DNA of 64,000 nucleotides, taken from the IMG/VR virus record IMGVR_UViG_3300002307_000034, positions 40,951 to 104,950 of that record. One strand, 5' to 3'. Position 1 is the first letter of the stretch. Every line of letters starts with the position of its first letter. Positions 14,548 to 58,165 of this stretch are shown one piece after another. The stretch is from a virus. Under the pieces are notes generated by a model that saw only the letters and a list, made by a program, of their open reading frames with translations, made no database searches and had not been told where the DNA came from. The position numbers were made by a program, and so were the translations under genes.

Positions 14548-14865
14548 CTAGCCCTCCACAACGTGTCCAAGTCCTAAACCAATTCCAAAGCCGTCTTGCT
14601 TTGCTCGGAAACCAGTTACCTTGGCTATATCATCATCCTCAGACGATGAATTTTCATCTAGGTCCACGCCTTGTAAGGCTGCGAAAAATCTTTTATCTCT
14701 TGTGTCTTTTTCACTTATTGCTTTTAATGTAAGCATAAGTTCTTCAACAGACATCGAAGATTCAAGTTCTTCGTAATTCTTCCAGTGACCTAGAAGAAAA
14801 GCTTCAGATTCTAAAGTGGCGAGATCTAGAGATTCCCAGTTAGATTCGCCCCTGGGAAGTTTGGG
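14548..14865 (-). CDS. Tail assembly chaperone, C-terminal part reached by -1 frameshift (gpGT-like)
   Basis: Frame of ORF 14548..14754 stays open upstream through the CCCAAAC heptamer (14859..14865) inside the preceding gene. Confidence 0.8.
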   Translation of the reverse strand, partial: PKLPRGESNWESLDLATLESEAFLLGHWKNYEELESSMSVEELMLTLKAISEKDTRDKRFFAALQGVDLDENSSSEDDDIAKVTGFRAKQDGFGIGLGLGHVVEG

Positions 14866-15167
14866 TCTGTGTCATTTAACTTTAACCCGCCTGCTATTTC
14901 AAGAATCTTCATTAGCGTTGGAATTTCGATAGTTGATTCAAATAAATCTCTATCTAAAGCCAGGTCTGGGGAAAATTGTTCCATGCAGATCATTCCAGCT
15001 TCTACAAAAATTTCCATAGCATCTTCTTCAGTTTTAACTGAATCATCTTGTAACTTTTTTACTACTGCTAGGAATTTCTTTAAATGTTTAATTGTTAATG
15101 GTTTAATTGATATTGTTTTATCATTGGACAACTTAATTTCAAGTGTGTCATATACTGTTGTTGGCAT
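14826..15167 (-). CDS. Tail assembly chaperone (gpG-like)
   Basis: Between major tail and TMP; slippery C CCA AAC near 3' end. Confidence 0.85.
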   Translation of the reverse strand: MPTTVYDTLEIKLSNDKTISIKPLTIKHLKKFLAVVKKLQDDSVKTEEDAMEIFVEAGMICMEQFSPDLALDRDLFESTIEIPTLMKILEIAGGLKLNDTDPNFPGANLTGNL

Positions 15168-15214
15168 TTTGCTCCTTTAGGTCTAATCAAAATTATATCA
15201 AAATTTATAATAAA

Positions 15215-56575: not shown

Positions 56576-56881
56576 ATGATTGAATATATTGAAGAGGCTT
56601 ATCAACTAGTAACTGGATATACTTCTAAGACCCTCCGCCCTGGTTTAATGGATTTGCTAACATTTGATATGTTGGTTGATATGAATATGCAGGACGATGA
56701 GTATGTTTGGTTTAATACACCTGATGAGGTTATGCAACACATTGTTGACAATAACGTTACCTTTACGCTACAATTCGGTTTAGATGATTTATGGCATGCA
56801 ATAAGAGAATATCTAATAGAAAATGATTTCGTCAAAAGTATTGACGATGTAAAAGAAGAAGAGGAAAATAATGACAACTAA
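56576..56881 (+). CDS. Hypothetical acidic protein
   Basis: ORF track. Confidence 0.6.
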   Translation: MIEYIEEAYQLVTGYTSKTLRPGLMDLLTFDMLVDMNMQDDEYVWFNTPDEVMQHIVDNNVTFTLQFGLDDLWHAIREYLIENDFVKSIDDVKEEEENNDN

Positions 56882-57047
56882 GACAAATGCTCGTGAGTTT
56901 CTTGTATCAAAGGGATTCAAGCCAGGTGCTCGTGGCCGTTTCTCTGCTGAAATGATTCAGGTCCTTAAGGATTCAGGCCTTGAATTTAATCGTCCTGTAA
57001 AGGACCCTAAGCCTCGTGCAAAGAACGAGTCTGTAACTTTAAAGTAA
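56871..57047 (+). CDS. Lsr2-like DNA-binding domain protein (58 aa)
   Basis: Hand-translated; AREFLVSKGFKPGARGRFSAE resembles the Lsr2 RGR AT-hook domain; GAGGA SD. Confidence 0.7.
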   Translation: MTTKTNAREFLVSKGFKPGARGRFSAEMIQVLKDSGLEFNRPVKDPKPRAKNESVTLK

Positions 57048-57235
57048 ACCCTTTCACTACAAAGGTTCCGCTGCGTGAGTCCCGTACATTGTACGGGCTT
57101 GCGATAGATGGATCCAAGCTCGGTTATGTGATGTGTACGGATTGTGAACAGCATATGACATTTTGCGAGTGTGAGGGTGGCGTGAAGGCTCCGTCTCAAA
57201 TAGTAAGAGCCCTAGACAAACTGGTAAGACTCTGA
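57038..57235 (+). CDS. Cys-rich extension probably reached by -1 frameshift from the Lsr2-like gene
   Basis: Open -1 frame with CTDC..H..C.C, no good own start; T TTA AAG heptamer directly before the stop. Confidence 0.55.
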   Translation, partial: FKVNPFTTKVPLRESRTLYGLAIDGSKLGYVMCTDCEQHMTFCECEGGVKAPSQIVRALDKLVRL

Positions 57236-57262
57236 TATAATTCAGGGTTCGGAAAGGACAAT

Positions 57263-57562
57263 ATGGAAATCAACGAAAAGTATGTTAAACAAACTCTAGA
57301 TGCTATGGCTGACCATAGAATGACTACAGGTGTAGTTGCTCAACAGATTGCCCAATTCAAACCAAGGGAGCAAATTAGATTCTTTAAATTAGCAATTAAC
57401 TATATAGAGATTCTTGCACAGCACGGAGAGCGTGGCTACACTATGTTAGGTTTAGAACACATTGTTAAGGCTTGCGAGGAACTCTTATTTGTGGTAGACT
57501 TGCACTTCCCAAAAGATGAAACACAGATGACCCTACCCGGAATGGAGTACGTAGCAGTATGA
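57263..57562 (+). CDS. Hypothetical protein
   Basis: TAGACA-17-TATAAT promoter and GAAAGGA SD. Confidence 0.7.
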   Translation: MEINEKYVKQTLDAMADHRMTTGVVAQQIAQFKPREQIRFFKLAINYIEILAQHGERGYTMLGLEHIVKACEELLFVVDLHFPKDETQMTLPGMEYVAV

Positions 57563-57680: not shown

Positions 57681-58058
57681 ATGGGAGCAAGAGTAAATTT
57701 CGTATTCAAGACAGAGTTAGATAAGCCTAACATTGTTCTATATTCTCATTGGGGCGAGGATACTTGGCAAGAAGATTTGGCTATGGCTATCGAAAAGGCA
57801 AGCAATCGTCTAAAAATGGGTGATGCAGTTTATGCCCTACGTATAATGATTGACCAATTAACTAAGTCTGGGCGGGACGAGGAAACAGGATTCGGTATCT
57901 ATCTAGCAGATGAAGATATGATGTATATGGACACTACAGTAGAAATTGATATGACTACTCAAATGGTTAATGATTCAGGCAATTGGCATTCATTTGAATC
58001 ATTTAGAGAATATCATCTAGAGGAAATGAAAGAGTACCACAAGTTTGACAATATTTAA
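57681..58058 (+). CDS. Hypothetical protein (MGAR...LYSHWG type)
   Basis: GAGGAG SD. Confidence 0.7.
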   Translation: MGARVNFVFKTELDKPNIVLYSHWGEDTWQEDLAMAIEKASNRLKMGDAVYALRIMIDQLTKSGRDEETGFGIYLADEDMMYMDTTVEIDMTTQMVNDSGNWHSFESFREYHLEEMKEYHKFDNI

Positions 58059-58080: not shown

Positions 58081-58165
58081 AAAGATATAGGGCGTTCAGG
58101 CTATTCTGCCAAGTCCAATTAATAGGACCCACACGAATTCGGGATCGTGTGGGTCCTTTCTTATT
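58081..58165 (+). ncRNA. Candidate small RNA
   Basis: TTGACA-18-TATAAT (58045..58074), about 85 nt without a start codon, then a 13-bp terminator stem. Confidence 0.45.

Follow-up and report, generated by a model that had tools for sequence, protein, structure and literature searches.

How a reading frame without a usable start codon comes to be expressed is the question raised by a small locus in the virus record IMGVR_UViG_3300002307_000034 of IMG/VR. The DNA that was analysed (the window) is a stretch of 64 kb, which forms the 3' part of this linear record of 104,950 bp (completeness estimate 97%, about 34% GC). In the window, a 58-amino-acid (aa) open reading frame (ORF), here called ORF1, encodes a divergent Lsr2-type DNA-binding domain and stops directly behind a slippery heptamer, and the -1 frame continues into a second domain with four cysteines (Cys4). 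A sequence-only reading of this DNA had proposed that a programmed -1 ribosomal frameshift joins the Lsr2-like domain to the cysteine domain. The proposal is supported by the conservation of the split, the maintenance of a slippery site and the existence of single-ORF homologues, and the locus very probably represents one non-structural gene expressed in this way.

The following elements are found at the junction of the two frames.

56871..57047, plus strand: ORF1 (0 frame), the short product of 58 aa, a divergent Lsr2-type DNA-binding domain with a basic linker
57038..57044, plus strand: slippery heptamer T TTA AAG (X XXY YYZ, in frame), within the ORF1 end ACT TTA AAG TAA
57045..57047, plus strand: 0-frame stop codon TAA directly 3' of the heptamer, read from the sequence
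57044..57235, plus strand: -1 frame extension of 63 codons plus TGA, encoding the Cys4 domain and predicted to be made only within the 121-aa fusion, as defined by an AlphaFold2 (AF2) model, profile search and alignments

The coordinates of ORF1 and its heptamer, as first reported from the letters, were confirmed. The -1 frame contains no stop between 57011 and the TGA at 57233-57235, and the earliest ATG, GTG or TTG of the extension is a TTG at 57089 (codon 16), which is not preceded by a Shine-Dalgarno (SD) sequence; the description of a frame open to 57235 with no good start, and of a predicted fusion of 121 aa (58+63), was thus also correct. Read after the slip, the extension is VNPFTTKVPLRESRTLYG...CTDCEQHMTFCEC..., with VNPFTT as its first residues and LVRL as its last. 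As a control for chance, all 185 ORFs with a length of 50 aa or more, from the six frames of the window, were compared. An in-frame X XXY YYZ occurs within the last three codons of six of them, among which ORF1 alone (1 of the 185) has a -1 extension of at least 55 codons. Stop-codon readthrough was rejected as a route to the second domain, because the 0 frame past the TAA is rich in stops and does not encode the Cys domain.

According to the proposed mechanism, most ribosomes would stop at the TAA at 57045 and release the RGR-containing DNA-binding domain alone. Some would slip back by one base, the tRNA-Leu and tRNA-Lys on UUA and AAG re-pairing with UUU and AAA, so that the slip would be ribosomal and of the tandem tRNA type. 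Translation would then proceed through GUA AAC CCU..., yielding a 121-aa protein that consists of the DNA-binding domain, the basic linker and the Cys4 domain.

Relatives of the locus were gathered by scanning viral and metagenome contigs. The window and 17 distinct relatives (L003, L004, L006, L007, L009-L011, L013, L015, L016, L026-L030, L032 and L035) make up a clade, in which identity to the window is 59-84% for the -1 piece (ORF2) and 56-74% for ORF1. A phage collection gave no blastn match to the region, and tblastn of the -1 piece against it returned only chance matches (E of at least 5). In 18 of 18 clade sequences, ORF1 stops zero to one codon past the slippery site and the second domain lies in the -1 frame. 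The site itself occurs in four forms.

C CCT TTA NNN TAA: 13 of the 18 clade sequences
C CCT TTG TCC TAA: one sequence (L015)
T TTA AAG TAA: three sequences (the window, L003 and L026)
T TTA AGG TAA: one sequence (L028)

The variants are located one codon upstream of, or at, the position of T TTA AAG in the window, and 17 of the 18 are perfect X XXY YYZ heptamers. Sequences that no longer have the CCC run (ACT or TCT, in the window and L003) carry AAG one codon downstream instead. Judged from the alignment, this alternation of the CCC run and AAG is the pattern expected from selection for slippage and not for a particular sequence. Following the site, TAAACCC is invariant in all sequences of the clade, as is the AAC codon of Asn2 in the -1 frame.

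The coding signal changes frame at the junction. Upstream of it, column entropy peaks at the third positions of ORF1 (1.37-1.52 vs 0.7-0.9), and from 9 nucleotides (nt) past it the peaks lie at the third positions of the -1 frame (1.44 vs 0.6-0.8); the latter pattern holds within the 78 nt that precede the sole widely shared Met (Met30). Only 7 codons before the junction, four relatives have a closed -1 frame, which confines the shift to a very short stretch that contains the heptamer. The comparative tests that the sequence-only reading had proposed each came out in its favour: the relatives keep the split and the slippery heptamer and have neither a continuous ORF nor an independently started second gene. 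The comparison shows selection, across the clade, for the split and the slippery site as well as for the coding of the two frames.

The start codons of the -1 frame bear on the possibility that there are two separate genes, with the Cys4 domain translated from an internal or non-canonical start (Met30) or by reinitiation after the TAA, and with no fusion made. The ATG of Met30 is present in 17 of the 18 sequences, several relatives have the SD-like AAGGTAGG 8 nt upstream of it, and gene callers gave a 56-aa ORF2 in one relative (P0005). However, Met30 is absent from L035 and has no SD sequence in the window, no start is conserved ahead of codon 30, and in the 18 sequences no candidate of any kind occurs before codon 7. 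Residues 1-29 of the -1 frame (VNP, P9, R11, SRTLYG, G23 and G27) are conserved as protein, with variation at third positions; they supply two of the three strands of a confidently predicted fold, and are conserved in the single-ORF homologues. Two genes would also leave it unexplained that a heptamer is kept in differing sequence forms. On this evidence, separate genes are considered very unlikely.

The same set of sequences was used to weigh whether the split might be a lesion, i.e. whether a 1-nt deletion, in a decaying gene or as a sequencing artefact, had divided a continuous gene, leaving only a 58-aa stub or nothing functional. The record is a metagenome assembly, and distant relatives do have a continuous ORF, so that a lesion is conceivable in principle. 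Yet the split is common to 18 distinct sequences from many samples, within a clade old enough for 16-41% amino-acid divergence; both halves show purifying selection, and the slippery site has been kept through sequence turnover. Moreover, the junction is present with 0 differences and 0 gaps in a 12-kb contig of 71x coverage, probably from the source sample, and in a 417-nt contig of a second sample. Across several repositories, 16 contigs are recorded as encoding exactly the 58-aa ORF1 product. The 18 distinct clade sequences and the identical junction contigs from two samples exclude an assembly indel, and a decaying gene or an artefact is hardly credible.

Proteins in which both domains are encoded by a single ORF were found outside the clade. 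In three metagenome contigs (L038-L040), whose C-terminal domain is 48% identical, the RGR and Cys4 domains are located in one ORF of about 120 aa. Longer (fused) relatives of the -1 piece did not emerge from a word-based protein search, and were found later by an exhaustive profile search with the C-terminal domain. This search gave 41 matches (E<=1e-3); the proteins are nearly all 70-190 aa long and carry the domain in C-terminal position, and an N-terminal RGR domain starts all but three of the 26 profile matches that were retrieved. The only short protein among the ten strongest profile matches is the 56-aa P0005, which is the gene-caller's ORF2 from the split clade. Since distant homologues are encoded by single ORFs, the fusion is a real protein architecture, and the comparison shows the fused two-domain form to be the ancestral and widespread one. 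In a phylogenetic tree, the split sequences are monophyletic (support 93/94) with the unsplit homologues outside, and the frameshift therefore arose once and has been retained since.

A further distant counterpart is gp223 of Streptomyces phage Circinus, a single ORF of 183 aa with an N-terminal RGR-type domain and a second one that is recognised by Pfam as Lsr2_DNA-bd. Its C-terminus (CGGC-x6-CGC) has the same C-x2-C-x6-C-x-C spacing as the window. The PHROG 6269 family, to which this protein belongs together with those of BillNye and Wakanda, shares with the window gene the N-terminal RGR domain, a basic Pro-rich linker and a C-terminal Cys motif followed by G-x-x-A/P-P. Members of this family are single ORFs, often with two RGR repeats, whereas the window gene has one repeat and is split by the frameshift. 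Identity to the Streptomyces phage proteins of the family is only about 30-47%, over short stretches.

The RNA around the slippery site was inspected for elements that could stimulate frameshifting, and two hairpins are present in the window.

57050..57065, plus strand: weak proximal hairpin CCUUU/AAAGG, 5 nt after the heptamer, shared by the window and two relatives only
57071..57107, plus strand: extended hairpin with the apical stem CCCGUAC-AUU-GUACGGG (57081-57097), starting 26-36 nt after the heptamer

For the 66-nt stretch that includes them, the folding energy is -22.9 kcal/mol (z = -3.7). The clade retains the apical stem, CGUAC-AYU-GUACG, through three compensatory changes from G-C to A-U, and in most relatives a lower stem of differing sequence extends it. 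Both hairpins had been pointed out in the sequence-only reading. Their existence was borne out, but the stronger one is 36 nt away, which is too far for a canonical stimulator, and the weak one is not conserved. The proximal hairpin was rejected as a conserved stimulator, being absent from most relatives.

Some of these observations weigh against a programmed frameshift. No hairpin or pseudoknot is conserved in the clade at the canonical spacing of 5-9 nt. The hairpin that is conserved overlaps the codons of the conserved peptide SRTLYG and begins 26-36 nt away, and for these reasons it does not qualify as a canonical stimulator. About 10 of the 18 sequences have an SD-like AAGG(T) at 10-13 nt before the site, and the window is not among them. 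On the same side stand the imperfect heptamer of L028 (T TTA AGG) and the SD-like AAGGTAGG before Met30, at which an internal product of 34 aa is possible in several relatives. Finally, the division of labour between the two forms, which would differ in their activity on AT-rich DNA, is purely inferential.

The sequence of L028 is also relevant to whether the fusion could be made by another kind of recoding, namely RNA polymerase slippage in the T3A3 tract, by which a base would be gained or lost, or slippage of a single P-site tRNA on U UUA next to the stop or a hungry codon. T TTA AGG suits slippage in the P site alone better than tandem slippage, and the sole element common to all 18 sites is YTTT(A/G) with TAA within zero to one codon. 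In contrast, the perfect X XXY YYZ heptamers of the other 17 sites are the signature of tandem slippage. Transcriptional slippage usually needs homopolymer runs of at least 6-9, and the T3 or A3 of the tract is shorter than this. Other recoding is thus judged improbable, to about the degree of two separate genes.

For the programmed ribosomal frameshift, the position of the stop codon may be relevant, as a stop codon adjoining a slippery site may itself favour slippage. As no strong stimulator came to light, the major product is probably the short form, with the long form as the minor one.

Additional features of ORF1 concern its expression and its DNA-binding motif.

56745..56774, plus strand: candidate promoter TTGACA-18-TACAAT (11/12), about 100 nt upstream of ORF1, from a consensus scan alone
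56861..56865, plus strand: Shine-Dalgarno sequence GAGGA, 5 nt 5' of the ORF1 ATG, read from the sequence
56931..56939, plus strand: codons of the RGR (AT-hook-like) motif, R21-G22-R23, from the alignment

In the family alignment of the ORF1 domain, R21 and G22 are invariant and R23 is nearly so. The profile of PHROG 6269, annotated as 'Lsr2-like DNA bridging protein', matches ORF1 at profile positions 2-52 (E 2e-4) and weakly also the -1 piece, at positions 154-179 (E 0.29). By tblastn, ORF1 is connected to Streptomyces phage proteins with the annotation Lsr2-like DNA bridging protein. When the profile of the ORF1-type domain was compared with Lsr2_DNA-bd repeats certified by Pfam, hhalign gave a probability of 96.2% (E 2.2e-9, 28 columns). 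A Pfam search of ORF1 itself had no match at E<=1, and PF23359 (Lsr2_DNA-bd) was also without a match across the whole phage genome; in relatives with two repeats, Pfam recognises the second repeat only.

The AF2 model of ORF1 has two helices (residues 7-14 and 26-35), which flank the R21-G22-R23 loop. The Lsr2 C-terminal domain ranks first in both structure searches with this model, as 2KNG in Foldseek (root-mean-square deviation (rmsd) 2.1 A over 31 columns, E 3.7) and as 6QKP in VIA-align (Z 2.7, rmsd 2.8 A over 36 residues), each match being weak if taken alone. The RGR loop between two helices is shared with host Lsr2 proteins (Lsr2 of M. tuberculosis, CgpS of C. glutamicum). The order of domains is reversed relative to host Lsr2, with the DNA-binding domain first and the Cys4 module second. 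ORF1 begins 5 residues before the DNA-binding domain, and neither the N-terminal dimerisation/oligomerisation domain of Lsr2 (PF11774 family) nor any other Pfam domain was found. The earlier designation as Lsr2-like therefore stands as far as remote homology and fold of the DNA-binding domain are concerned, and does not extend to the Pfam model, which missed ORF1, or to the Lsr2 oligomerisation domain. Because the latter is absent, the ORF1 product is best described from its sequence as similar to the Lsr2 DNA-binding domain and not as an Lsr2 orthologue.

The second domain is defined by its cysteines.

57134..57172, plus strand: C-x2-C-x6-C-x-C motif (CTDCEQHMTFCEC), presumed zinc site, from an alignment of 41 family members

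C31, C34, C41 and C43 are invariant in the 41 aligned sequences, as putative metal ligands arranged in two knuckles, and the motif takes the form CTDC-x6-CEC in the window. The -1 piece is modelled by AF2 as a small module of three strands (predicted local distance difference test score, pLDDT, 89). The model and the alignment suggest a small beta-rich domain in which the four cysteines probably hold zinc. The -1 piece had no match in Pfam and none at E<=1 in a sequence-profile search of the PDB, and fold searches with the Cys4 model revealed no convincing relative among solved structures: the best Foldseek matches were rubrerythrin and ribosomal zinc-ribbon proteins (E>2), and the best Z of VIA-align was 2.1. 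A search of the ESM Atlas found unnamed viral clusters only (0.86). Prediction of a Cys4 homodimer with zinc scored 0.26 against a mark of 0.42, and this result speaks neither for nor against self-association.

A scan of genome contigs gave only 20-residue matches, of which one was inspected. This look-alike of the GFVMCxDC motif belongs to a serine recombinase of 525 aa (L041:2098-3675), where it forms part of the zinc ribbon, in a metagenome-assembled genome of Parasphingorhabdus (Sphingomonadaceae); it was dismissed as a chance resemblance and not a homologue.

Two protein forms from one gene would fit known systems. The short form would bind AT-rich DNA without self-association or a partner, and so modulate or compete; the long form could associate with itself or bring in a partner through the cysteine domain. 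Closest in logic is the OrfA/OrfAB pair of IS3-family elements (e.g. IS911), which likewise consists of a short product that only binds DNA and a longer fusion, and the tau and gamma products of E. coli dnaX are two isoforms that differ in their C-terminal domains. Slips in IS3 and dnaX use X XXA AAG-type heptamers, and an upstream SD-like element can stimulate them. Unlike these systems, the window has no strong proximal hairpin or pseudoknot and no SD-like element; the majority heptamer of the clade is C CCU UUA as compared with A AAA AAG, and the protein families are unrelated. Truncated antagonists of silencers (H-NST), in which a fragment with only the DNA-binding or only the oligomerisation part interferes with the silencer, are a known theme (PMC8612146). 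Counter-silencing by a DNA-binding-only variant, raised in the sequence-only reading, is a conjecture.

The phage also has a tail-chaperone frameshift of its own, in which a 116-aa ORF (14826-15176) is followed by an overlapping -1 ORF (to 14548).

14548..15176 of the window, minus strand: tail assembly chaperone pair with the heptamer C CCA AAC at 14859-14865, upstream of the gene for a 2005-aa tape measure protein; classical G/GT type

The frameshift of tail chaperones (lambda G/GT) is the one routinely annotated in actinophages. In these genes, as in the gene described here, the heptamer lies close to the end of the 0 frame, the long -1 extension has no start, the two products share an N-terminus, and the arrangement is conserved across divergent phages. 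They differ in that tail chaperones are structural, whereas this gene is early, small and DNA-binding. The frameshifted genes annotated in SEA-PHAGES number 2476, of which 2397 encode tail chaperones and 79 are listed as 'hypotheticals' (PMC10885494). Literature searches on Lsr2, phage and frameshift found no paper that links Lsr2-like genes with frameshifting, and a survey of Lsr2-type regulators in actinophages mentions no frameshift or cysteine domain (PMC8612146).

Two related phage records, L010 (G002) and L013 (G003), have direct terminal repeats, are 101.7 and 112.2 kb long and were rated 100% complete. The phages of this group are therefore about 100-112 kb in size, and the record of the window is nearly whole. 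Runs that contain the window DNA are freshwater metagenomes, and related contigs came from lake samples. Outside the window, the phage genome holds a WhiB-family gene and a set of tRNA genes.

G000:C1:5664-5837 (outside the window), minus strand: WhiB-family gene, PF02467 match
G000:C1:8927-11417 (outside the window): eight phage tRNA genes, namely Arg(UCU), Lys(UUU), Leu(UAA), Gln(UUG), Asp(GUC), Met(CAU), Ile(UAU) and Asn(GUU)

The PF02467 match (E 8e-12, above the cut-off) lies in an open frame of 117 aa, and the presence of WhiB is taken as a sign of an actinophage (PMC10202952). Based on the WhiB gene and the origin of the samples from freshwater and lakes, the host is most likely a freshwater actinobacterium.

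Most of the phage tRNAs read codons that end in A or U, and tRNA-Leu(UAA) and tRNA-Lys(UUU), encoded at G000:C1:9791-10076, decode the slippery codons UUA and AAG/AAA. Sequences like these Leu and Lys tRNA genes are carried by five related phage records (75-99% identity). In E. coli, the pairing of a UUU anticodon with AAG is prone to slip. The ordinary explanation of such tRNAs is adaptation to AT-rich codon usage, and a role in setting the frameshift is a speculative possibility. In an unlikely but conceivable extension of this idea, the frameshift would act as a timer, its efficiency being set by the supply of phage tRNA-Leu(UAA) and tRNA-Lys(UUU), so that the output shifts as these tRNAs accumulate during infection. 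If so, the output would move between a form that only binds DNA, competing with host Lsr2 on phage DNA of 34% GC, and a fusion of the DNA-binding and Cys4 domains that may organise or bridge DNA or recruit a partner.

Downstream, the end of the -1 ORF overlaps a promoter-like element.

57213..57241, plus strand: promoter-like TAGACA-17-TG-A-TATAAT (extended -10 type), for the next gene at 57263-57562

A TGATAGAAT-like box is found at the same place in relatives. Further downstream, a strong terminator-like hairpin at 58124-58157 (13 bp, 8 of them G-C, followed by a T-run) closes the block of small plus-strand genes after 57681-58058.

The locus thus represents a well-supported case of frameshifting in an early gene whose product is a DNA binder resembling nucleoid proteins, among actinophages whose annotated cases are almost all tail chaperones. 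It would mean that this group of phages requires the protein in two forms, one with the cysteine-rich second domain and one lacking it. The combination of RGR and Cys4 domains is a widespread, uncharacterised architecture that has been annotated merely as "Lsr2-like DNA bridging protein", and gene callers miss the fusion, reporting a 58-aa stub and a start-less fragment instead. The gene may offer a simple system for studying how phages handle Lsr2-type silencing of AT-rich DNA, and whether phage tRNAs influence recoding.

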